Part shown: positions 5,734-20,500 of the stretch, piece by piece
Position numbering within the stretch: the first letter of the stretch is position 1
Layout: each line of letters begins with the position of its first letter
DNA from: Alkalilimnicola ehrlichii MLHE-1
Lineage (GTDB): Bacteria > Pseudomonadota > Gammaproteobacteria > Nitrococcales > Halorhodospiraceae
Direction of reading: 5' to 3'
Length of the DNA: 32,000 bases
NCBI RefSeq assembly: GCF_000014785.1
Contig: NC_008340.1
Coordinates: forward strand, 2,760,001-2,792,000
The notes under the pieces: generated by a model
Seen by the model: the letters and a program-made list of their open reading frames with translations, nothing else
Databases searched by the model: none
Told to the model about the DNA's origin: nothing
Made by a program: the position numbers and the translations under genes

Positions 5734-6618
5734 TCAGCGCCTGCGGACCGGGATGTGGTCCGCCCTGATGCTGACGGTATCACCTTCGCGCCGCTGGGGC
5801 AGGCCCTCGCTGGCCCAGGCGTGGCCGTAGACCACCTCCCAACTGGCGGGGATGCGGCCGTCCGGCCCCCGGTAGGCCGCCTCGTAGGCCTGGCACATGG
5901 CCTGCAGCCGGCGCCGGGTGGTGAGACCACGGCCCCGTCCGCTTGCGGCGTTACGCGCCCCCAGGCCGCGCAGGTCGTGCAGCACCCCCATGGGGTCCCC
6001 GTAAGTCAGGGTGAACGACTCCATGTCCATCACCGGGTCGGCGAAGCGGGCCTGCACCAGGGCGTCCCCCACGTCGTGCATATCGATAAATTCGTGCACA
6101 TGGGGCTTGTCATCCACCTGCGCCCAGGCCGCGCGCAGCTCCTTCAGCGTGTCCGGGCCAAAGCTGGAGAACATCAGCAGCCCGCCGGGCCGCAGGACCC
6201 GCTGGAACTCGGCGAAGACCCGGTGCAGGTCCGGCATCCACTGCAGGGCGAGGTTGGAGAACACCATATCGACGCTCTCCGCAGCCAGCGGCAGGCGCTC
6301 GGCGTCGCCGCAGAGGGTGCGGATCGGCCGTAGCCAGCGGCCCCGGCGCCGGGTGGCCCGGAGCATGCTGGGGGCATGGTCCAGGCCAATCACCCGCGCC
6401 TTGCGGTAGTGATCCTGCAGTGCCCGGGTGCAGAAGCCGGTGCCACAGCCCACATCGACGATGATCGCGGGCTGCATCAGGATGACGTGCAGGCGCTCCA
6501 TCAACCGCTCGCCGACTTCCCGTTGGAGTACGGCGACCTGGTCATAGCTGTCGGCGGCCCGGTGGAAGTTACGGCGGACCTGGCGCTTGTCGAGAGGGGT
6601 TCGAGTCATGGTCGGCAT
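5734..6618 (-). CDS. bioC: Malonyl-ACP O-methyltransferase BioC
   Basis: SAM-binding VDVGCGTGF, BioC-like N-terminus KRQVRRNFHRAADSYDQVAVLQREV, and position in the bio operon. ATG at 6618 (MPTMTRT). The 556-aa ORF extension upstream runs through bioH in another frame. Confidence 0.9.
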   Translation of the reverse strand: MPTMTRTPLDKRQVRRNFHRAADSYDQVAVLQREVGERLMERLHVILMQPAIIVDVGCGTGFCTRALQDHYRKARVIGLDHAPSMLRATRRRGRWLRPIRTLCGDAERLPLAAESVDMVFSNLALQWMPDLHRVFAEFQRVLRPGGLLMFSSFGPDTLKELRAAWAQVDDKPHVHEFIDMHDVGDALVQARFADPVMDMESFTLTYGDPMGVLHDLRGLGARNAASGRGRGLTTRRRLQAMCQAYEAAYRGPDGRIPASWEVVYGHAWASEGLPQRREGDTVSIRADHIPVRRR

Positions 6619-7367
6619 TGCTGACTGAGGAGGTGAAGGTGACCGGCAACCCACTCGGGGTGGGTCAGGAACGGCAGATGGCCGGCCTCGGGATGATACG
6701 CCATCCGCGCCCGGGGCATCGCCCGGGCGGCCTCTTTGGCGGCACCGTCGGGGACAAGCGGATCGCGACCACCGGCAAGCCAGGTGGTCGGGCGGTCGAT
6801 GGCGGCCAGCCGGCCGCGCAGGTCGGTGTCGCGCAGCAGGCTCAGGCCCGGCTCCAGGGCCGTCGCCGGACCGGGGCCACGGCGCCGCCACGGGCGCAGC
6901 GCCTCGCGGTCCCCGGCCCCCGCCCGGCCCAACAGGGCGTGGAAGCCACGGAGGGTCCGGCGCGCGTCCTCCGCCAGCCCTCCGATCATGGCATCCAGCT
7001 CCTCCCGGAGCAGGCCGTAAGGCCAACCGTCCCGTTGGCAGAAGCAGGGGGTGGCGGCGAGGAGCAGCAGCGCTCGGGGTCGCGCGCCCCGGGCAGCGGC
7101 GGCCAGCAGCGGCAGGGCCCCCAGCGACCAGCCCACCCAGATGGCGTCCTCGGGGACCGCCAGGCGGACGGCGTCGGCCCAAGCCTCCAGGCCGGCATCC
7201 GCTGGCAGTGGCGCGCTCCCACCATGCCCCGGCAGGTCCGTTCGGGTGACCCGCCAACGCTGCGTCAGGCGGGGCAGCCAGGGGTCGAAGACCCGGTGGT
7301 CGAAGCCCCAGCCGTGAACCAGCACCAGGCCCTCCGGGCCCCGCCCTTCGGTGACCGCACGCATCAT
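6606..7367 (-). CDS. bioH: Pimeloyl-ACP methyl ester carboxylesterase BioH (alpha/beta hydrolase)
   Basis: LVLVHGWGF, nucleophile elbow GWSLG, and C-terminal GHLPFLTHP. The start overlaps the bioF stop (ATGA 7364-7367). Confidence 0.85.
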   Translation of the reverse strand: MMRAVTEGRGPEGLVLVHGWGFDHRVFDPWLPRLTQRWRVTRTDLPGHGGSAPLPADAGLEAWADAVRLAVPEDAIWVGWSLGALPLLAAAARGARPRALLLLAATPCFCQRDGWPYGLLREELDAMIGGLAEDARRTLRGFHALLGRAGAGDREALRPWRRRGPGPATALEPGLSLLRDTDLRGRLAAIDRPTTWLAGGRDPLVPDGAAKEAARAMPRARMAYHPEAGHLPFLTHPEWVAGHLHLLSQQCRP

Positions 7368-8539
7368 TGGCCCAGGACCTGTCCCAGCGCAGCCACCAGG
7401 CCATCCACCTGCTGGGGCGTGTGGGCGGCGCTGAGGGTGACGCGCAGGCGGGCGGTGCCCTTGGGGACAGTGGGGGGCCGGATGGCGGTGACCAGGTAGC
7501 CGCGCTCCTCCAGCGCGCGGCTGGCCTGTAACGCCTGATCGGCCTCGCCCACCACGATCGGCTGGATAGGGGTCTCGGAGGGCATCAGATCCAGTCCCAA
7601 GTCGGCGATGCCCGCCCGGAAGCGCCGGACCAGGGCGCGCAGGTGTTCGCGCCGCCAGGTTTCGTGGCGGGCCAGGCGCACCGCCTCGACGGTGGCAGCG
7701 GTCTGGGCCGGGGACGGCGCGGTGGTGTAGATCCAGGTGCGCGCGGATTGGACCAGGTGGTCGATCAGGAGCCGGCGGCCGGCAACGAAGGCGCCGAAGC
7801 TGCCCACGGCCTTGCCCAGGGTACCGACCAGCACGGGCACATCGTCCTGATCCAGTCCGCTCTGTTCCAACAGCCCGCCGCCCTTCTCGCCCAGTACCCC
7901 CAGGCCATGGGCGTCGTCCACCATGAGCCAGGCACCGTGGTCCCGTGCCAGGCGGGCCAGCTCCGCCACCGGGGCGCGGTCGCCGTCCATGCTGAAGACA
8001 CCATCGGTGACGATCAGCCGGTGCCGCCCGCCATCCTCCGCGAGCCGCCGGGCCAGGTGGTCCACATCACCATGGCGGTAGCGGCGCAGCCGGGCGCCCG
8101 ACAGCCGGGCACCGTCCAGCAGCGAGGCGTGGTTAAGGCGGTCCTCGAACACGGTATCGCCGCGGCCCACGAGGGCGTCGATGACGCCGAGGTTGGCCAT
8201 GTATCCGGTGGAGAAGAGCAGTGCGGCCTCGCGGCCGGTCCAGTCGGCCAGGGCCCGTTCCAGCGCTTCGTGCTCCGGGCGGTGGCCACTGACCAGATGG
8301 GCGGCGCCGCTACCGGCACCCTGCTCTTCGGCCACCCGGGCCATGACCCGGCCGGGACGCGGATCGCTGGCCAGCCCGAGGTAGTCGTTGGCGCAGAAGA
8401 CGACGACGGTCCGGCCGTCGGCGGTGAGACCGCAGGCCCCGTCGACGCTCTTGAGCACGCGCGGGCTGCGGTAAAGCCCCTCCGCCCGGCGGGCGGCCAG
8501 GCCCTCGGACAGCATCCGGCTCAGGGCGCCGGCGTTCAT
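7364..8539 (-). CDS. bioF: 8-amino-7-oxononanoate synthase BioF
   Basis: PLP class-II aminotransferase layout with [10 protein letters not shown] and the lysine motif [12 protein letters not shown]. The start overlaps the bioB stop (ATGA 8536-8539). Confidence 0.92.
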
Positions 8540-9531
8540 CCCAGGTCCTCGGCCTCGGCCTGGGCGCAGGCGTGCGCCTCAAACCCCATGCCCAGACGGG
8601 CCAGCAGGCGGCGGTCCTTGTCGGCCTCCGGGTTGCCGGTGGTGAGCAGCTTGTCGCCGTAGAAGATGCTGTTGGCGCCGGCCAGGAAGCAGAGGGCCTG
8701 CAGTTCGTCGGACATCTGCTCGCGGCCGGCGGAGAGGCGGACGTAGCTGGCCGGCATGAGGATGCGGGCGACGGCGATGGTGCGGACGAATTCGAAGGGG
8801 TCGGGGGGCTCGACGCCGTGCAGCGGGGTGCCGGGGACCTGGACGAGCTGGTTGATGGGGACGCTCTGCGGCTGCACCGGCAGGCTGGCCAGGGTACGCA
8901 GCAGTTCGGCGCGGTCCTGGCGGGTTTCGCCCATGCCGATGATGCCGCCGCAGCAGGTCTTGAGGCCGGCGTCGCGCACCCGGGCGAGGGTGTCGAGGCG
9001 GTCCTGGTAGCTGCGGGTGGTGATGATTTCGTCGTAGTAGTCCTCGGAGGTGTCGAGGTTGTGGTTGTAGTAGTCGAGCCCGGCCTCGCGCAGGCGTTCG
9101 GCCTGGCCGTCGCGGAGCATGCCGAGGGTGAGGCAGGTCTCGAGGCCCAGGGCCTTGACCTCGCGCACCATGGCCTCGACGGTCTCCAGGTCGCGGTCTT
9201 TGGGCGAGCGCCAGGCGGCGCCCATACAGAAGCGGGTAGCACCGGCGTCCCGGGCCCGGCGGGCGGCCGCCACCACCTCTTCCACGGCCAGGATTTGCTC
9301 GCGTTCCAGGCCGGTGTCGTAGCGCACGCTCTGGGGGCAGTATTTGCAGTCCTCCGGGCAGGCGCCGGTCTTGATGCTGAGCAGGGTGCTGACCTGGACG
9401 GTGTTGGGGTCGAAGTGGGCCCGGTGGGTGGTCTGGGCTTGGTGGAGCAGGTCGTTGAAGGGCTGCTCGAACAGGGCCAGGACTTCGTCTTTAGACCAGT
9501 CGTGGCGGGGTGTTTGGGTTGTGGCGGTCAT
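8536..9531 (-). CDS. bioB: Biotin synthase BioB (radical SAM)
   Basis: [22 protein letters not shown] and [11 protein letters not shown] at 9531 (MTATTQ) gives an E. coli-like length; an in-frame alternative ATG lies at 9549. The ORF-track start at 9765 runs through a repeat element. Confidence 0.93.
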
Positions 9532-9572
9532 TGATTTGGTGGCTCCCATGCTCTTGGTGGCTCCCGGCTGGG

Positions 9573-9770
9573 TTGGCTTGAGGGGGCGGGCGCGGTTTCG
9601 GTCGGGCCGACTTTTGCGCACCGAGCAACGCAACAAAATGTCGGAGAAAAGGCGCGCCTGTCCGAGCGAAGCGAGTTCGCGCCGCCGACATTTTGTGAGT
9701 AGCGCAGGGAACCCCGAAGGGGTGCGCAATCGGAGGCCCGACCGAAACCGCGCCCGCCCCCTCAAGCCAA
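9573..9770 (+). repeat. Nested-palindrome element, copy A (36-bp perfect outer arms 9573-9608 / 9735-9770 around a 126-nt conserved core)
   Basis: I checked the arms base by base as exact reverse complements. The core GACTTTTGCGCACC...GGTGCGCAATCGGA is shared with copies B and C. Its internal 12-bp stem is ACAAAATGTCGG/CCGACATTTTGT. Confidence 0.9.
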
Positions 9771-9793
9771 CACGGCAACGTCCCGATCAGCGA

Positions 9794-9821
9794 ATCCTAT
9801 CACCGCGCGACTCACCGTCAA
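9794..9821 (-). promoter_or_regulatory. Candidate sigma70 promoter of bioBFHC (TTGACG-N16-TAGGAT)
   Basis: The minus strand reads TTGACGgtgagtcgcgcggtgaTAGGAT. The -35 is at 9816-9821 and the -10 at 9794-9799. Transcription would then cross element A before reaching bioB. Confidence 0.35.
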
Positions 9822-9846
9822 CCTCATTGCAGTTGCTTCGGTTTAC
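9817..9846. promoter_or_regulatory. Candidate BirA operator (bioO-like inverted repeat GTCAACC-N16-GGTTTAC)
   Basis: Resembles the gammaproteobacterial BirA site TTGTAAACC-N14-16-GGTTTACAA. It lies in the bioB/comF divergent region and overlaps the candidate -35. Confidence 0.4.
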
Positions 9847-9920
9847 CACCAATTTTCATTAAAGGGGCCGATCGGTGGCGCTACACTGGGTGGGGTCACT
9901 CGGATGAACGGAGCAATGCC

Positions 9921-10709
9921 ATGGACGGTATCCACCACTGGTTGCGGGCGATCGGTCACGGCCTGGACCGGCTCTATCCGCCCCGCTGCGTGCTTTGCGG
10001 TGAGCCGGGGCAGCCGCCGGCGCTGGATCTGTGTGCCGGCTGCCAGGCGGACCTGCCATGGGTGGTGAACCCCTGCGCCCGTTGCGGGCAGCCGTTGCCG
10101 GAGGACAGCGCGGCGGACGGGTTGTGTGCGGATTGCCTATGCTGGCCGCCACGGTTCGATAAGGCCGTGGTGCCGCTGGATTACCGGTTTCCGGTGGATC
10201 GCCTGGTGACCGGTTTCAAGTTCCATGGCGGCCTGGCCACCGGGCGGGTGCTGGGGACGTTGCTGGCACAAGCGGCGGGGGCGCGAGGGGAGGCGCTGCC
10301 GGAGGTGCTGGTGCCGGTCCCGCTGCACCGGTCTCGGCTGATTGAGCGCGGCTACAACCAGGCGATGGAGCTGGCCCGGCATATCACCCGGATCCTGTCT
10401 GGGCGGCGGGTCTGGCACGGGGTGCGGCGGGTGCGGGCGACCAGCGCCCAGAGCGGGTTGGACCGGGCGCGCCGGTCGGGGAATGTGCGCGGGGCCTTTG
10501 TGCTGGAGGGGGCGCCGCCGGCGCAGCACGTGGCGCTGGTCGATGACGTGATGACCACGGGGGCGACGCTGGATGAGATCGCCGGGTGTCTGAAGGCCGC
10601 CGGGGTGGAGGTGGTGGAGGCCTGGGCGGTGGCGCGCACCCCACCCCCGGCCCACCAACCGGGCGGCTCGCCCGCTGCGGGCGACGGCCCGGTCGGGCCC
10701 GATGGGTGA
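9921..10709 (+). CDS. comF: ComF-family protein (phosphoribosyltransferase-like, GntX/ComFC type)
   Basis: N-terminal Cys pairs CVLCG...CAGC...CARCG...CADC, LVPVPLHRSRLIERGYNQA, and the PRT motif VALVDDVMTTGATL. Confidence 0.85.
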   Translation: MDGIHHWLRAIGHGLDRLYPPRCVLCGEPGQPPALDLCAGCQADLPWVVNPCARCGQPLPEDSAADGLCADCLCWPPRFDKAVVPLDYRFPVDRLVTGFKFHGGLATGRVLGTLLAQAAGARGEALPEVLVPVPLHRSRLIERGYNQAMELARHITRILSGRRVWHGVRRVRATSAQSGLDRARRSGNVRGAFVLEGAPPAQHVALVDDVMTTGATLDEIAGCLKAAGVEVVEAWAVARTPPPAHQPGGSPAAGDGPVGPDG

Positions 10710-10711
10710 GG

Positions 10712-11593
10712 TCAGCCGCCCAGATGCAGGTCCAGCAATAGGCCCAGGAAGATCAGGCCGCCCAGCCAGTTGTTGTTGAGGAAGGCCCGGAAGCAGTCCT
10801 CCCGGCGCCGCTCGCGGATCAGCCACTGCTGGTAGGCGAACAGCGCGGCGGCGGCGGCCAGGCCCAGGTACCAGAAGGCACCGAGGCCCACCACCAGTCC
10901 GGCCGCCACCAGCACGGCGAGCATGACCCCCTGCAGCACGCCGATGATGGCCCGGTCGGCCTGGCCGAAGAGCACCGCCGTGGATTTGACCCCGATTTTC
11001 AGGTCGTCGTCGCGGTCCACCATGGCGTACTGGGTATCGTAGATGGTCGCCCAGAGCACGGCGGAGAGGAACAGCAGCCAGGCCACCGGGGCCACCGCAC
11101 CGGTCTGGGCGGCGAAGGCCATGGGGATGGCCCAGCCGAAGGCCGCGCCCAGGTGGACCTGCGGGAAGTGGGTGTAGCGCTTCATGAAGGGATAGGTGGC
11201 GGCCAGGGCGACGGCCACCAGTGAGAGCGCGATGGTGAGCGGGTTCATCAGCAGCACCAGCCCGAAGGCCACCAGGCAAAGCACCACGAACAGGGTCAGC
11301 GCCTCGCGCTCGCTGACCCGGCCGTTGGCCATGGGGCGGTGGGTGGTGCGCTTGACGTGGCCGTCGAAATCCCGGTCGGCGTAGTCGTTGATGACGCAGC
11401 CGGCGGCGCGCATGATCAGCACCCCCAGTACGAACACCACCAGTACCTTGAGGTCGGGCAGCCCTTTAGCGGCAATCCACAAGCCCCAGAGCATGGGCCA
11501 GAGCAACAGGAAGTTGCCGATGGGCCGGTTCAGGCGGGTAAGCTGGGCGTACTGCCAGGCGCGGTCGCGCAGGTAGTCGGCGGTCATCTCCAT
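10712..11593 (-). CDS. ubiA: 4-hydroxybenzoate polyprenyltransferase UbiA
   Basis: [16 protein letters not shown], the NDYADRDFD motif, and multiple TM helices. ATG at 11593 (MEMTADY), 5 nt after the ubiC stop. Confidence 0.92.
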
Positions 11594-11598
11594 GGCAC

Positions 11599-12147
11599 TC
11601 AATCCTCCAGGCTCTGCAGCAGGGGCGGCAGAAAGACTTCGGTCACCAGCAGGCCGGCATTGCCATACCACAGGCGCGAGCGGCGGGCCCAGCACCCGGC
11701 ACCGCCGCCGGGGACCCGGGCCGCCAGCGGGTCGCGGGGGCCAAGCCGGGCGATGCTGAGGGGCCCGCGGGCAACGGTGCGGCCGCGGAACAGCGCCCCG
11801 CCCAGGGGCGTGCGACCCAGCCGCGCCAGGCGCCGGCCATCGCCGGCCAGCGCCTCCGGCGGCATGATGGTGCGGGCGTAGATCCAGGCCTGGTCGCGGC
11901 TGCCGAGCAGCACCTCGCGGATGCGGGCGTGGCGCCCGTCCGACAGCTCCACCGCCCGGGCCTCATCGATACTGGGCCGGCCCCAGCGCTCCACCAGCAC
12001 GGTGACCTCGAGCCCGCCGGGCACGCTGCGTCGCAGCCGCGCGGTGAGCGAGCCGGGTTCGTCCAGCCACGCCTCCAGCCCGCGCGGCACCCTGCGTCGC
12101 GAGGGGTGGCGGCGCGGCCACCAGCTTGCCTCTTTGTTCCGGTACAA
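11599..12147 (-). CDS. ubiC: Chorismate--pyruvate lyase UbiC
   Basis: [22 protein letters not shown] and WARRSRL...LLVTEVFLP match the UbiC layout. TTG start at 12147 with GGAG 6 nt upstream; no in-frame ATG lies near the N-terminus. Confidence 0.8.
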
Positions 12148-12183
12148 ACGATTCTCCAGCTATCCAATCCAACCGGGGCCTGC

Positions 12184-12397
12184 TGTGGTCTGGCGGGGCG
12201 GAGCAGGGGCGGATGGTCGGTCAGGCCGACTTTTGCGCACCGAGCAACGCAGCGAAAGAGCGGAAAAAAGGCGCGCCTGTCCGAGCGAAGCGAGTTCGCG
12301 CCGCCGCTCTTTCGCGAGTAGCGCAGGGAACCCCGAAGGGGTGCGCAATCGGAGGCCTGACCGACCATCCGCCCCTGCTCCGCCCCGCCAGACCACA
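12184..12397 (+). repeat. Nested-palindrome element, copy B (44-bp perfect outer arms 12184-12227 / 12354-12397, 126-nt core)
   Basis: The arms are exact reverse complements, extendable to 48 bp with one mismatch. The core is identical to copy A except the internal stem pair GCGAAAGAGCGG/CCGCTCTTTCGC and one A/G. Confidence 0.9.
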
Positions 12398-12421
12398 ACA
12401 GTCCTCATACGGGGGAGGCAA

Positions 12422-14539
12422 TCAGACCTGGCCATAGCGCTCGGAGGCCCCGACCCAGCGCCTTACCAGCGGCTCCACCCGCTCCGGGTGCGCCTGCTGC
12501 AGCCGGTCGCCCAGTACCTGCACCCGCGGCAACAGGCCCGCATCCCGGTTGAGATCCGCCACCCGGTAGCTCAGTTCCCCGGTCTGACGGGTGCCGAGCA
12601 ACTCGCCGGGGCCGCGGATCTCCAAATCCCGCCGGGCGATCTCGAAGCCGTCGTTGCTCCGGCGCAGCACCTCCAGGCGCGCCCGCGCCGCCTGCGACAA
12701 CGGGCCATGATACATCAGCACGCAACTGCTTTCGGCCTCGCCCCGGCCCACCCGGCCGCGCAGCTGGTGCAACTGCGCCAACCCCAGCCGCTCGGCGTTC
12801 TCGATGATCATCAGGCTGGCGTTGGGCACGTTCACCCCCACCTCGATCACCGTGGTGGCCACCAACAGCCCGATCCGGCCGGCGGCAAAGTCCGCCATCA
12901 CCGTGTCCTTATCCGCCGGTTTCATGCGCCCATGCACCAACCCCACCCGGTGCCCGGGGAGGGCCGCCTGCAGGGCGGCGTAGGTCTCCTCCGCGGCCTG
13001 GGCCTCCAGCACCTCCGAGTCCTCAATCAGGGTGCAGACCCAATAGGCCTGCCGGCCCTGGGCCAGCGCGGCGCCGATGCGTGCCACCACCTCGTCCCGC
13101 CGAGTCTCCGAGACGGCCACGGTCTTCACCGGCTTGCGGCCCGGGGGCAGTTGGTCGATCACCGAGACGTCCAGGTCGGCGTAGGCGGTCATCGCCAGGG
13201 TGCGCGGGATGGGGGTGGCGGTCATGATGATCTGGTGGGGCTGGCTCCGCCCCCGGTGGCCCTTCTCCTTCAGGGCCAGGCGCTGGTGCACACCGAAGCG
13301 GTGCTGCTCGTCGACGATGACCAGCCCCAGGGCCTGGAAACGCACGTCGTCCTGGAACAGGGCGTGGGTGCCCACCACCACCGGGTAGTCCCCGGCCGCC
13401 AGCGCCGCCAGCATGGCCTCCCGCCGCCGCCCGGCAGCGCGCCCCGACACCCAGCCCACGGGGATATCCAGCGGCGCCAGCCATTCGTTGAAGCTGCGCC
13501 AGTGCTGCTCCGCCAGCAGCTCGGTGGGCGCCATGATGGCGGCTTGATAGCCGGCCTCCACGGCCCGAAGGGCGGCCAGGGCCGCGACCACGGTCTTGCC
13601 GGAACCCACGTCACCCTGGACCAGGCGCAGCATGGGCACCGACCGGGTCATGTCCTCCGCCAGCTCCCGGTCCACCCGGCGCTGGGCCTCGGTGAGCGCG
13701 AAGGGGAGTGAGTCCAACAACCGGCGGGTGAGGCGGCCGTCGCCGTGGATGGTGGGGGCGTCGGCGGCGGCCTGCAGGTGGGCGCGCAGCCGGCGCATGG
13801 AGAGGTGGTGGGCCAACAGCTCTTCCACCGCCAGCCGCTGGACACAGGGGTGGCGGCCCTCGACCAGCGGTGCGGTGTCGGCATCCACCGGTGGCTTGTG
13901 CACGTAGTACAGGGCCTCGGCCAGCGCGGGCAGCCCCAGCTCGCGGGTCAGTTCCGCGGGCAGCCAGTCGGGCATGTGCCGCGCCAGGGCCAGGGCCTGG
14001 TCGATGAGCTTGCGCAGGGTCTGTTGGTGCAGGCCCTGGGTGGTGGGATAGACCGGGGTGAGGCCGTGCGGGCCCTCGTCGCCGGCGCTGGCGCGGGGGC
14101 CCAGGCGGTACTCCGGGTGCACCATCTGCGGGCCGGTGGGGCCGGGGCGCAGTTCACCGAAGCAGCGGATGGGGGTGCCGGGGCGCATCTGCTGGCGCTG
14201 CCCCGGGTGGAAGTGGAAGAACACCAGATCGGCGCTGCCAGTGCCGTCGCTGATCTGCACGATGAGCCGTTTGCGCCGCCCCTCGGCGATACCGGCATGC
14301 TCCACCCGGCCGATGACGACGCCGGACTCCCCCGGGCGCAGGGCGCCGAGCCGGCGGACGGTGTCACGGTCCTCGTAGCGCAGCGGCAGGTGGAACAGCA
14401 GGTCCTGCACGGTCGCCAGGTGCAGACGGGCCAGGCGCTCGGCCAGTTGCGGCCCGACCCCGCGCAGCGCGGTGATCGGCTGGCCGGCCGGGTCCTGGTC
14501 GCTGGCGGATGCGCTGCTGGGGGCCTGGGGTTCACTCAC
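12422..14539 (-). CDS. recG: ATP-dependent DNA helicase RecG
   Basis: Walker A GDVGSGKT, DEQHRFG, QLHQLRGRVGRG, and an N-terminal wedge region. GTG start at 14539. Confidence 0.95.
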   Translation of the reverse strand: MSEPQAPSSASASDQDPAGQPITALRGVGPQLAERLARLHLATVQDLLFHLPLRYEDRDTVRRLGALRPGESGVVIGRVEHAGIAEGRRKRLIVQISDGTGSADLVFFHFHPGQRQQMRPGTPIRCFGELRPGPTGPQMVHPEYRLGPRASAGDEGPHGLTPVYPTTQGLHQQTLRKLIDQALALARHMPDWLPAELTRELGLPALAEALYYVHKPPVDADTAPLVEGRHPCVQRLAVEELLAHHLSMRRLRAHLQAAADAPTIHGDGRLTRRLLDSLPFALTEAQRRVDRELAEDMTRSVPMLRLVQGDVGSGKTVVAALAALRAVEAGYQAAIMAPTELLAEQHWRSFNEWLAPLDIPVGWVSGRAAGRRREAMLAALAAGDYPVVVGTHALFQDDVRFQALGLVIVDEQHRFGVHQRLALKEKGHRGRSQPHQIIMTATPIPRTLAMTAYADLDVSVIDQLPPGRKPVKTVAVSETRRDEVVARIGAALAQGRQAYWVCTLIEDSEVLEAQAAEETYAALQAALPGHRVGLVHGRMKPADKDTVMADFAAGRIGLLVATTVIEVGVNVPNASLMIIENAERLGLAQLHQLRGRVGRGEAESSCVLMYHGPLSQAARARLEVLRRSNDGFEIARRDLEIRGPGELLGTRQTGELSYRVADLNRDAGLLPRVQVLGDRLQQAHPERVEPLVRRWVGASERYGQV

Positions 14540-14569
14540 GGCTGAATTCCGTTGGCCGGGGCTCGGGGC

Positions 14570-14783
14570 GGGCGGCCGTGCCCGGTCTGCTCGGGGTCAT
14601 CATCGCTGGGGCCTCCGATTGCGCACCCCTTCGGGGTTCCCTGCGCTACTCGCGAAAGAGCGGCGGCGCGAACTCGCTTCGCTCGGACAGGCGCGCCTTG
14701 TTTCCGCTCTTTCGCTGCGTTGCTCGGTGCGCAAAAGTCGGCCCCAGCGATGATGACCCCGAGCAGACCGGGCACGGCCGCCC
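14570..14783 (-). repeat. Nested-palindrome element, copy C (44-bp perfect outer arms 14570-14613 / 14740-14783, 126-nt core, inverted relative to A and B)
   Basis: The reverse complement of 14614-14739 equals the copy B core with a single A-to-C change. The outer arm sequence is unrelated to B apart from the core-proximal GGCC. Confidence 0.9.
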
Positions 14784-14803
14784 TCCTGGGCATTGGTCAG
14801 GGA

Positions 14804-15187
14804 TTACGGCAGGACCAGGACTGCGTCCATCTCCACCTGGGCCCCCTTCGGGAGCTCGGCCACGCCGATGGCGGCACGGGCCGGATAGGGCTCGGCGAAG
14901 TACTCCTGCATGATCTCGTTGACCAGGCCGAAATGGCTCAGATCGGTAAGGAAGATGTTCAGCTTCACCACGTCGGCCAGCTTGCCGTCAGCGGCCTCGG
15001 CCACCGCCTGGAGGTTGTCGAAGACCCGGCGGACCTGGGCCTCCATGTCGCCCTCCACCAATTGCATGGTCTCCGGCACCAGCGGGATCTGGCCGGACAG
15101 GTAGACGGTGCGCCCGGCGCGGATGGCCTGGGAATAGGGGCCGATGGCGGCGGGTGCGCGGTCGGTCTGGATGGTCTTGCGTTCCAT
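14804..15187 (-). CDS. ridA: RidA/YjgF-family reactive-intermediate deaminase
   Basis: [12 protein letters not shown]...GQIP...KLNIFLTD...[27 protein letters not shown] at 15187 (MERKTIQ). Confidence 0.9.
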
Positions 15188-17869: not shown

Positions 17870-18350
17870 GGGGCAGTGACGGGGGAGTCACCCCGCCGAT
17901 CTTGCCTGCCCCACTCCCCGCCGCGCGGGCCGACGGCTTTCTCCCCGTCGTCGCGAGGGCCGAAGGCTTTCCCCGTCGTCGCGAGGGCCGCAGGCCCGTG
18001 GCGATCCAGGCGGTGGACTGCCACGTCGGCTTCGCCTCCTCGCAGTGACGAGGGGGCCCCTCCCCCGTCATCGCGAGGGCCGAAGGCCCGTGGCGATCCA
18101 GGCGGTGGACTGCCACGTCGGCTTCGCCTCCTCGCAGTGACGAGGGGGCCCCTCCCCCGTCATCGCGAGGGCCGAAGGCCCGTGGCGATCCAGGCGGTGG
18201 ACTGCCGCGTCGGCTTCGCCTCCTCGCAGTGACGAGGGGCCCCTCCCCCGTCATCGCGAGGGCCGAAGGCCCGTGGCGATCCAGGCGGTGGACTGCCGCG
18301 TCGGCTTCGCCTCCTCGCAGTGACGAGGGGGCCCCTTCGCAGTGACGGTG
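17870..18350. repeat. Array 1 of GC-rich quasi-palindromic units (about 4.3 tandem copies, period 91-92 bp)
   Basis: The unit GTCATCGCGAGGGCCGAAGGCCCGTGGCGATCCAGGCGGTGGACTGCC(A/G)CGTCGGCTTCGCCTCCTCGCAGTGACGAGGGGGCCCCTCCCCC starts at 17975, 18067, 18159 and 18250. Confidence 0.9.
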
Positions 18351-19044: not shown

Positions 19045-19300
19045 CAGCGTCATCGCGAGCCCCCCGCCCCGCTGCGCGGGCCCGAATCAACGAGGAACGG
19101 GGCACCCCCGGTCATCGCGAGGGCCGAAGGCCCGTGGCGATCCAGGGCGGTAGACTGCCACGTCGCTGCGCTCCTCGCAGTGACGGTGGGGATGGGTCCG
19201 CTCCCGCAGTGACGGCGGGGGCAGGCCCGCTCCTCGCAGTGGCGGTGGAGACGAGCCCGCGCCCTGCAGTGACGGGGCGGCACCGCCTGCGCCGTGGCGC
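19045..19300. repeat. Array 2 of the same family: one full unit (about 19110-19185) followed by four ~30-bp half-unit repeats
   Basis: GTCATCGCGAGGGCCGAAGGCCCGTGGCGATCC...CTCCTCGCAGTGACGG. The half-units C(T)CC(T)CGCAGTG(A/G)CGG start at about 19171, 19201, 19230 and 19262. Confidence 0.85.
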
Positions 19301-20239: not shown

Positions 20240-20500
20240 CCGCCCGCTGCGCGGGCCCATCATCGCGAGGGCCGGAGGCCCGTGGCGATCCAGGCGGTAG
20301 ACTGCCGCGTCGGCTTCGCCTCCTCGCAGTGACGGTGGGGGCAACACCCCCGTCATCGCGAGGGCCGGAGGCCCGTGGCGATCCATAGCGGTGGACTGCC
20401 GCGTCGCTGCGCTCCTCGCAGTGACGGTGGGGGCGAGGTTCGTCCCGCGGTGACGGTGGGGCGGCGCCGCGCCTTGCGGTGGGGGTGGGTCCGCGTCGCG
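20240..20500. repeat. Array 3 of the same family: two full units (about 20259-20335 and 20352-20428) followed by degenerate half-units
   Basis: Same unit and orientation as arrays 1 and 2. It is preceded by CCGCTGCGCGGGCCC, as is array 2. Confidence 0.85.

Follow-up and report, generated by a model that had tools for sequence, protein, structure and literature searches.

REP, BIME and REPIN sequences are GC-rich extragenic palindromes that lie after genes or between the genes of operons, can have terminator or mRNA-stabilizing roles and are mobilized by RAYT transposases; individual REPs measure ~20–40 nt and combine a hairpin with a conserved GTAG head, and in REPINs the arms, which are the REP sequences, are conserved and the loop is free. 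Correia elements are hairpin-forming intergenic repeats of 100–200 bp that lie between promoter and gene and are co-transcribed, and the Correia-containing mtrCDE mRNA of Neisseria is cut by RNase III (PMC10969869); among functional precedents for a repeat located in a 5′ UTR they come closest. They are MITEs with an IHF site and a TA target duplication, and their terminal inverted repeats are alike from copy to copy. The ERIC/IRU elements of Enterobacteriaceae and Yersinia are imperfect palindromes of at least 127 bp that occupy transcribed intergenic regions in either orientation, are conserved over their full length and alter transcript decay in an orientation-dependent manner (PMC10969869). 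SPRITE is a pneumococcal dispersed repeat that resembles rho-independent terminators (PMC10969869). Within inverted repeats, template switching homogenizes the arms and inverts the spacers (PMC8604942; PMC7202029), the documented quasipalindrome cases having arms of ~5–20 bp separated by just a few bases.

Here we compare these systems with a palindromic repeat upstream of the biotin operon bioBFHC of Alkalilimnicola ehrlichii MLHE-1, using a window of 32,000 nt (the whole stretch of DNA analyzed). We read the copy at bioB (copy A) as a mobile-like palindromic repeat that was inserted long ago in the bio 5′ UTR, is probably co-transcribed with the operon and is not biotin-specific, a reading to which we give a probability of about 0.6; a role for the element as a dedicated biotin regulator is unlikely. 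The operon, its four genes identified by NCBIfam equivalog matches, and its upstream control sites are arranged as follows.

5734–6609, minus strand: bioC (NCBIfam TIGR02072)
6606–7367, minus strand: bioH (NCBIfam TIGR01738)
7364–8539, minus strand: bioF (NCBIfam TIGR00858)
8536–9531, minus strand: bioB (NCBIfam TIGR00433)
9530–9565, minus strand: 18-nt tandem duplication, GGGAGCCACCAAGAGCAT / GGGAGCCACCAAATCAAT, giving two Shine-Dalgarno-plus-ATG units as read from the sequence
9794–9821, minus strand: sigma-70-type bioB promoter, with −35 TTGACG (9821–9816), a 16-nt spacer and a TG-extended −10 TAGGAT (9799–9794)
9817–9846: predicted BirA-type operator, inverted repeat GTCAACC-N16-GGTTTAC, which reads GTAAACC-N16-GGTTGAC in the bioB sense

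We compared the operator with that of E. coli, bioO, the spacer of which is 16 nt long. In E. coli bioO, two TGTAAACC-like half-sites form an inverted repeat that overlaps the bio promoter (PMC545781); the A. ehrlichii site has the same half-site type and promoter overlap, but its promoter-proximal half-site is GGTTGAC and not GGTTTAC, like the delta-proteobacterial sites in the same study, and the distance from operator to gene is ~210 nt longer in the taxa that bear the element. The published BirA consensus is TTGTAAACC-N14/15-GGTTTACAA, with a GGTTgAC half-site variant given for several bioB sites (PMC545781); the bioB-sense sequence tGGTAAACC-N16-GGTTGACgg agrees with it at 8/9 and 6/9 positions and has a spacer of 16 nt, as in all five taxa compared, where the quoted consensus has N14/15. 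The site thus fits the inverted repeat TTGTAAACC ... GGTTTACAA, and it is also placed as a BirA operator would be, 5′ of biotin genes, overlapping a promoter and conserved in orthologs. The genes identified in the window do not include birA. A search of the 32-kb window with GTMAACC-N16-GGTTKAC, one mismatch permitted, returned this single match against 0.01 expected, and a scan of 9400–10000 for sigma-70-like sites returned the TTGACG-16-TAGGAT promoter only (0.1 expected), the −35 of which sits within the promoter-proximal half-site of the operator.

The TGTAAACC-N16-GGTTGAC operator is kept upstream of bioB in Alkalispirillum mobile (A. mobile; L010), in a metagenome relative (L014) and in two outgroups (L012 and L013, the latter with one half-site degenerate), and a −35 TTGACR and a −10 at 16-nt spacing are present at all four of these orthologous loci in surroundings that have diverged. 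The operator and promoter of the original prediction are thereby supported, the former being unique in the window and the latter in 9400–10000, and both being spaced identically at four related bioB loci. From the position of the promoter, bioB transcription would start near 9787; the −10 lies 245–265 nt from the bioB ATG, which is placed at 9549–9547 in NCBI and at 9531–9529 in UniProt (public records of 337 and 331 aa, one per start choice). Most of this interval is occupied by copy A, whose parts are the following.

9567–9776: copy A, entire hairpin, delimited by its inverted-repeat pair, fold and family-profile match
9735–9776, minus strand: promoter-proximal arm (5′ arm in the bio mRNA), which pairs with 9572–9608
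9609–9734: asymmetric core with helices P1–P4, internal loops and the apical loop
9712–9722, minus strand: hairpin that reads CCCC-UUC(G)-GGGG in the bioB sense and CCCC-GAA-GGGG in plus-strand letters
9645–9683, minus strand (bioB sense): central hairpin P4 (9683–9651) followed by UUUUCU (9650–9645), terminator-like
9659–9677, plus strand: family apical loop YT-GTCCGAGCGAAGCGAGTT, which contains a GC-GAA-GC mini-hairpin and flanking tandem G.A pairs
9567–9608, minus strand: bioB-proximal arm, the 3′ arm of the bio mRNA hairpin, its end separated by 1 nt from the first Shine-Dalgarno motif

An inverted-repeat search places the arms at 9567–9622 and 9721–9776, and arm alignment gives an unbroken Watson-Crick stem of 37 bp (9572–9608 with 9735–9771), so that the 198-nt palindrome with a perfect duplex of ~36 bp first proposed for this leader was correct to 1–2 nt. 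The 318-nt region folds at −179 kcal/mol (z = −8.3 relative to shuffled sequences), and copy A scores 141 bits against the family profile (nhmmer). The two hairpins claimed for the bioB sense can both be read in the A. ehrlichii sequence: the C(UUCG)G hairpin as CCCCUUCGGGG at 9722–9712, and P4 as a GGCGCG...CGCGCC helix (−11.4 kcal/mol) followed by UUUUCU, with T at five of the next eight bases. A terminator scan of 9400–10000 with a loop limit of 8 nt made no call, P4 included. We considered and rejected sequestration of the Shine-Dalgarno motif by the hairpin, since partition-function folding shows a rod that pairs within itself and leaves the motif outside.

Copy A fills the leader, as had been proposed, leaving ~20–35 nt before the start codon with no second promoter-like site found. 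Transcription from a second bioB promoter within or downstream of the element, the upstream one being vestigial or serving comF, is very improbable: the minus strand of 9530–9780 holds zero promoter-like matches in a scan limited to sigma-70-like sites, the roughly 17–35 nt between the base of the hairpin and the start codons are taken up by Shine-Dalgarno motifs, the arms are GC-rich and differ among the three orthologs, and the upstream −35, −10 and operator are still conserved in the taxa that bear the element. Because no second promoter is detectable, bioBFHC transcripts most likely begin near 9787, in which case the entire element would form a rod-like 5′ UTR on them.

Comparison with relatives bears on the age of the element. 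The gap between comF and bioB is 372–383 nt in A. ehrlichii, A. mobile and L014/L049, each of which houses the element, and 74–80 nt in the outgroups L012 and L013, which are without it. The comparison with element-free relatives proposed at the outset thus finds short leaders (~40–60 nt) in both outgroups, with operator and promoter present. In A. mobile and L014 the element occupies the same position at bioB with its core inverted with respect to A. ehrlichii; hence the C(UUCG)G hairpin and the hairpin followed by UUUUCU belong to the bio mRNA of A. ehrlichii only. After inversion, the core of copy A is 88–89% identical to those of A. mobile and L014, against 37–63% for the unconstrained leader flanks, and the ranking at bioB overall is core (88–98%), arms (63–85%) and free leader flanks (37–63%). 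The arms change in a concerted manner: 12 of the 14 positions at which the stems of copy A and A. mobile differ are altered on both arms with pairing preserved, and further stem comparisons give 8/12, 6/12 and 7/10 such changes.

The same data bear on whether the A. ehrlichii and Alkalispirillum copies were inserted independently at one site. This would be in keeping with junctions that are without a target-site duplication and with the within-species exchange of another copy (copy B, below) for a related, inverted one, but all three bioB copies have arms that align over their full length (63–85% identity) from a common flank start, TGCC|GT(G/T)TTG, and the promoter-proximal arm of copy A is orthologous to those of L010 and L014 (71–74% identity), whereas the arms of the paralogs A, B and C have just short motifs in common (GTGTTG..., TTGAGG). 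We therefore regard independent insertion as quite unlikely. Conservation of the core in place across genera would not be expected of a dead selfish insert and runs against our main reading; it may reflect a role in the host or conversion from copies elsewhere.

Copy A is one of three copies in the window, all within 5.2 kb, the other two being:

12177–12404: copy B, directly 3′ of the recG stop codon, in the orientation of copy A
14567–14786: copy C, which separates ridA from recG and has the orientation opposite to copy A

Related copies occur in two MAGs and several metagenome contigs; the contig scan missed the A. mobile copy despite its exact 22-mer, so absence from that scan is uninformative. 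Members of the family are non-coding elements of ~210–240 bp with a conserved asymmetric core of ~130 nt and long near-perfect arms (perfect or near-perfect stems of 37–50 bp across copies), and among 11 copies 10 of the 32 consensus pairs of the core show compensatory changes. The neighbors of the copies are ordinary housekeeping genes. The orthologous site of copy B is empty in A. mobile, L014, L012 and L013, and that of copy C in A. mobile and L014; this presence or absence at orthologous sites is the sole ground on which we call the element mobile. In a second A. ehrlichii strain (CP184336.1, 99.3% identical) copies A and C are unchanged and copy B is inverted with remodeled arms, which differ by ~22% between the strains in a surrounding tract that differs by ~2%. 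Point mutation and homogenization explain this arm divergence poorly, and replacement by a related copy is the alternative.

How does this family compare with the systems described above? Like a MITE it is small, non-coding and multi-copy; unlike a classical MITE it has no terminal inverted repeats conserved from copy to copy, the conserved part being the center. Comparison of the junctions of A, B and C with the empty sites of A. mobile, L014 and L012 revealed no target-site duplication, although these sites are diverged enough that short ones may hide, and no gene for a transposase or other associated enzyme was found beside any copy. Relative to REPs and REPINs, both size and conservation pattern are reversed. 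Unlike Correia elements, the family conserves its center, varies its arms by copy and shows no duplication. It has no sequence relationship to ERIC, belongs to another host clade and has much longer, nearly perfect stems that turn over quickly. The likeness to SPRITE lies in the terminator-like center, as in copy B, which sits directly 3′ of recG with GGCGCG...CGCGCC-UUUUUU, but the phylum and the sequence are different and the T-run is found in one sub-family only. Quasipalindrome mutagenesis would account for the paired arm changes and the inversion of the core, although the arms here are ~40–50 bp long and the spacer ~126 nt. RecA-dependent recombination of one arm with the other and replacement by another copy are no less possible than template switching.

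Several other origins and relationships were considered. Copying of the arms from the flank of the insertion site, as an inverted target duplication, was rejected: A. mobile, at its empty recG-ubiC and ridA-recG sites, has no sequence in common with the arms of B or C, and the arms of different copies do have short motifs in common. Insertion into pre-existing long palindromes was rejected too, as the window is without other long, closely spaced inverted repeats. A match on a viral contig (L018) proved not to be palindromic and was discarded as a family member. Rfam 15 gave no match in the window at gathering thresholds and none at E ≤ 1 on copies A, B and C; one weak match in 9400–15000, to Ysr141, falls inside recG and is due to chance. 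Plasmid and phage collections held no match to the element, nhmmer with the family profile found no more diverged copies in the window or in 430 kb of other loci, and a search of proteins for spurious ORFs over further copies, for which the core was translated in five frames and joined into one, probably poorly designed, query, had zero matches. Literature searches on the apical loop, related motifs and Alkalilimnicola palindromes found nothing relevant.

The apical loop of the element is invariant across 11 copies. The 20-nt loop also recurs in palindromes from other phyla, in seven sub-families from genomes and metagenomes, on GC-rich closing stems of differing sequence. In DNA, d(GCGAAGC) mini-hairpins, GNA triloops and tandem G.A pairs are unusually stable. 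It is possible, and we hold the idea tentatively, that the element is chiefly a single-stranded DNA or cruciform structure, such as the recognition substrate of a hairpin-binding enzyme (an HUH-type transposase, for example) or a replication or repair site, and that its RNA form is incidental. The arms are near-purely Watson-Crick despite their quick sequence turnover, orientation is free relative to transcription and flips are seen, the conserved unpaired parts of one strand are GNA-type triloops (GC-GAA-GC; CCCC-GAA/GCA-GGGG, the loop of the latter being GAA or GCA depending on the copy) and tandem G.A pairs, and stems unrelated to one another carry the 20-nt loop in several phyla. Yet the opposite strand reads these loops as UNCG-like RNA tetraloops, which leaves the motif argument ambiguous, no enzyme gene was found beside the copies, and the three window copies differ in orientation relative to replication within 5 kb. 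Stem mismatches, scored by strand for RNA function, came to nine G.T versus six A.C, too even a split to be informative. More speculatively, and in our view improbable, the family may represent a class of structured elements that spans phyla and is as yet undescribed, in which a fixed 20-nt loop YU-GUCCGAGCGAAGCGAGUU (or its DNA form) and a few asymmetric internal loops sit on a fast-changing perfect duplex with a flipping center; such a class would point to a conserved partner acting in trans, either an RNA-binding factor or a DNA enzyme specific for hairpins, and Alkalilimnicola and Alkalispirillum would have domesticated one copy as their bioBFHC leader.

After P4, the T-run reads TTTTTT (after recG) and TTTTCT (before bioB) where it is the sense strand, whereas each of the four copies with that strand antisense has a broken run (TTGTTT or TTGTCT), a pattern of two copies versus four, the four not all independent. 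The T-run is confined to the Alkalilimnicola/Alkalispirillum sub-family and missing in the related sub-family of the Ectothiorhodospiraceae MAG, and GAGTAGCGCAG of one sub-family is replaced by GAGCAGCGCAG at the same place in the other. An intact T-run in the sense orientation would suit the co-option of copy A as a cis-regulatory bioBFHC leader (an attenuator, an RNase III site or a stabilizer) held by selection, as would its occupation of the same site in two genera, its identity in two A. ehrlichii strains, a core conserved beyond the surrounding leader, and the 18-nt duplication, which adds a Shine-Dalgarno-plus-ATG unit farther from the base of the hairpin. We nevertheless find co-option doubtful: in the sister genus the element has the opposite orientation and neither the terminator-like strand nor the C(UUCG)G hairpin is common to the bio mRNAs, the element is also present at unrelated loci, the outgroups manage with a leader of 40–60 nt, and retention is the default if precise excision is rare. 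Of the original prediction, which ties the element to bio regulation, the location in the leader stands; a bio-specific role is not supported, the element being a dispersed repeat that outgroups are without and that is inverted in the sister genus.

On the reading we prefer, the old insertion of a mobile-like repeat, the element would have entered a leader that was short in the ancestor, landing downstream of the BirA-controlled sigma-70 promoter and upstream of the ribosome-binding site prior to the split of A. ehrlichii and Alkalispirillum, and would have been retained thereafter. Arm complementarity and core flips would most likely be due to template switching or to recombination between the inverted arms. 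The orientation in A. ehrlichii puts the GC hairpin and then UUUUCU on the sense strand, and by analogy with Correia elements the long 5′ duplex and terminator-like hairpin would be expected to cause partial termination and/or RNase III cleavage, which would lower or buffer bio expression downstream of BirA control. Judged from sequence, processing, attenuation or stabilization of the bio mRNA are plausible as side effects, and any effect on bio would be incidental to a repeat that is also found at unrelated intergenic sites, or else a secondary adaptation to it.

The locus offers a natural case in which a BirA-controlled promoter is parted from its operon by a 210-nt hairpin, present in both orientations in sister genera, and thus a ready comparison for the effect of a long 5′ duplex and a terminator-like hairpin on a tightly repressed vitamin operon. 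The anatomy of the repeat is reversed, with a conserved center and arms that are free and yet always complementary, and an apical loop common to other phyla hints at one recognition partner. Inversion and arm remodeling between strains that are 99.3% identical make the family a good system for studying how palindromes are maintained in a bacterial chromosome, through template switching and homogenization.

The palindrome in the bioBFHC leader of Alkalilimnicola ehrlichii MLHE-1 (copy A) is a member of a dispersed palindromic repeat family that is apparently new to description. Its position relative to the bio genes and to two further copies is as follows.

Features of the bio and recG regions
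9921-10709, plus strand: comF
8536-9531, minus strand: bioB, then bioF, bioH and bioC on the same strand
9817-9846: BirA-type (biotin repressor) inverted repeat GTCAACC-N16-GGTTTAC, sole match in the window (0.01 expected by chance)
9821..9794, minus strand: promoter TTGACG-16-TAGGAT with TG-extended -10, sole promoter-like site in 9400-10000
9567-9776: copy A
9567-9622 / 9721-9776: palindrome arms of copy A
9572-9608 paired with 9735-9771: uninterrupted 37-bp stem of copy A
9722..9712, bioB sense: CCCCUUCGGGG
9683..9651, bioB sense: GGCGCG...CGCGCC helix, then UUUUCU at 9650..9645
12177-12404: copy B
14567-14786: copy C, inverted
Minus-strand order: spoT, ridA, copy C, recG, copy B, ubiC, ubiA

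The operator and promoter are present as originally predicted and are kept in the four orthologous bioB loci that we compared, namely those of Alkalispirillum mobile (L010; BioB 88% identical), a metagenome relative (L014/L049) and the outgroups L012 (BioB 74%) and L013 (Alkalilimnicola sp. S0819). All four carry TGTAAACC-N16-GGTTGAC(A/G), with one half-site degenerate in L013, and the half-site of every locus contains the -35 TTGACR, with the -10 sixteen nt further on; the intergenic sequence around these elements is barely alignable among the same loci. The half-sites agree with the published BirA consensus TTGTAAACC-N14/15-GGTTTACAA, including its GGTTgAC variant (PMC545781), with a spacer of N16 here vs the published N14/15. 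This phylogenetic footprint gives good support to a putative BirA-controlled bioB promoter at 9794-9846, and we infer the position of the bioB transcription start from the sequence.

The palindrome, the CCCCUUCGGGG hairpin and the GGCGCG...CGCGCC helix with its UUUUCU tail were likewise found as described, and the 318-nt stretch containing copy A folds at -179 kcal/mol (z = -8.3). The two outgroups retain the operator and promoter without the element, with comF-bioB gaps of 74-80 nt and leaders of ~40-60 nt, vs gaps of 372-383 nt in A. ehrlichii, A. mobile and L014, where the element is the extra length. Because there is no room for a second promoter between copy A and bioB, and none was detected in a promoter scan of 9400-10000, the whole of copy A is most likely co-transcribed in the bio mRNA. 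In A. ehrlichii a single nucleotide separates the hairpin base from a Shine-Dalgarno motif, and partition-function folds give copy A as a self-contained rod with this motif outside it. An 18-nt tandem duplication (GGGAGCCACCAAGAGCAT / GGGAGCCACCAAATCAAT, 9530-9565) at the bioB start creates two Shine-Dalgarno-plus-ATG units, and public records place the start differently (337 aa, ATG 9549, vs 331 aa, ATG 9531). We speculate that the second unit, more distant from the hairpin, might be an adjustment to the insertion.

Copy A is probably not a biotin-specific device: the idea of a dedicated biotin-regulatory leader feature gives way to that of one copy of a dispersed repeat. Copies A, B and C share 89-95% identity over their central 130-150 nt, their outer arms are unlike from copy to copy, and every copy is nearly perfectly self-complementary. 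Scanning with the central 19-22-mer recovered one additional Alkalilimnicola-type copy (L028/L029) as well as a second sub-family, which occurs in two MAGs, one assigned to Ectothiorhodospiraceae and one to Pseudomonadota. More distant palindromes came from further contigs, including those of a Clostridiales genome and an Acidobacteria MAG. Copy counts are lower bounds, as this genome-contig scan missed the A. mobile and A. ehrlichii copies even though L010 has the exact 22-mer; the collection or index thus does not include these two genomes. In an 11-sequence alignment three unpaired blocks are invariant (GCGCACCGAGCA, TGTCCGAGCGAAGCGAGTTCGCG and GCGAG(T/C)AGC(G/A)CAGGG...GGGTGCG) and the helices between them covary, with compensatory changes in 10/32 consensus pairs. 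The GC stems closing the 20-nt apical loop differ in sequence across seven sub-families. Copies occupy short intergenic gaps, beside ordinary housekeeping genes where checked, and searches of Rfam, papers, plasmids and phages gave no match to the family. In two Logan assemblies (SRR9436228, L016; SRR9436229, L017), contigs with an identical RidA stop 10-60 nt past ridA, where copy C starts; since short-read assemblies seem to break at the palindrome, MAGs probably under-represent elements of this kind. An IMG/VR contig (L018:10560-10960, the same sequence as L038) holds the exact 19-mer loop in a non-palindromic stretch that is rich in the related motifs CCGAGCAACGCGAGG, GGAGCGAAGCGACAGG and GCCCGAAGGGTG and adjoins AGCGCT-rich repeats.

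A separate family, a 92-nt hairpin-forming unit (CCCCGTCATCGCGAGGGCCGAAGGCCC...CCTCGCAGTGACGAGGGG) that also contains a C-GAA-G mini-hairpin, forms a four-copy tandem array between gmk and rpoZ (17971-18336), with relatives in neighbouring intergenic gaps (further coordinates 17922-17995, 19106-19275 and 20245-20461). This array is a copy-number polymorphism, because in the other A. ehrlichii strain it is longer by approximately four units (366 nt). Rfam also gave a weak match to the Yersinia sRNA Ysr141 within the recG coding sequence (13436-13633; 26.6 bits vs a gathering score of 196), which is almost certainly due to chance.

A. mobile and L014 lack copies B and C at the orthologous sites (gaps of 53-54 nt), and both outgroups lack copy B as well. 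Arm sequence was not found in the empty orthologous sites, so the arms come with the element; their origin as copies of the insertion-site flank is ruled out, and no target duplication was seen when junctions were compared with empty sites. At the bioB site the arms of A. mobile and L014 are alignable with those of copy A, start at the same flank position and enclose a core in the orientation opposite to that of A. ehrlichii. The sequences indicate one insertion into the bio leader, in an ancestor of the two genera. Among these orthologous copies the core of A. ehrlichii is 88-89% identical to those of A. mobile and L014, which are 98% identical to each other; arm identity is 63-85%, and free leader segments are 37-63% identical. 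Of the differing stem positions, 12/14, 8/12 and 6/12 show changes in both arms that preserve Watson-Crick pairing.

The same behavior is seen within the species. The window is 99.3% identical to the second A. ehrlichii strain (CP184336.1; BioB 100%), and the two strains do not differ in copies A and C. Copy B is inverted between them (12177-12404 vs L015:12767-13013), with ~22% of stem positions changed, 7/10 of them on both arms, plus mirrored indels; the spacer beside the recG stop codon differs too. SNP density between the strains is ~1.7-2% at ~10117-12854 vs 0.1-0.2% across bioBFH and the greater part of recG/spoT. This tract, with copy B, ubiC, ubiA and comF inside, looks like a recombination import, and the arm change in copy B is about ten times that of the tract (~2% vs 0.1-0.2% elsewhere). 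Template switching between inverted repeats is known to homogenise arms and invert the spacer (PMC8604942; PMC7202029), and the paired arm changes and core flips would be its known outcomes; arm recombination, or a swap for a related copy, could produce the same pattern.

The element may function as RNA or as DNA. On one strand the conserved loops are GNA-type triloop hairpins and tandem G.A motifs, both noted for stability in DNA, and on the other they read as UNCG-like RNA loops. A wobble-mismatch strand test (G.T vs A.C) gave 9 vs 6, which is uninformative, and over the 5 kb with copies A, B and C the orientation follows neither transcription nor replication. On the A. ehrlichii bio sense strand the central hairpin (-11.4 kcal/mol) is followed by UUUUCU, and in copy B, directly past the recG stop codon in the orientation of copy A, by UUUUUU; the T-run is broken (TTGTTT or TTGTCT) in four copies with that strand antisense. 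An intact T-run when sense and a broken one when antisense is suggestive in these few, partly related copies; a simple terminator scan of 9400-10000 called none.

The predicted 37-bp perfect RNA duplex of copy A is long enough for RNase III. This enzyme has been shown to cut Correia elements that are transcribed together with mtrCDE, and in Yersinia ERIC elements alter transcript decay (PMC10969869). Copy A could attenuate bio transcription or be processed, as originally proposed; since the sister genus carries the element in the opposite orientation, a role common to both genera would have to depend on the duplex and not on strand-specific hairpins.

The GC-rich 22-mer loop is also central to long imperfect palindromes between housekeeping genes in the Clostridiales genome (L005:3640-3930; 52% GC) and the Acidobacteria MAG (L004:760-1020). 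A loop common to other phyla suggests either that it has spread horizontally or that many hosts share a recognition partner. Overall, the conserved center, the fast-changing perfect arms, the flips between close strains and the cross-phylum loop are the more unusual part of these results.
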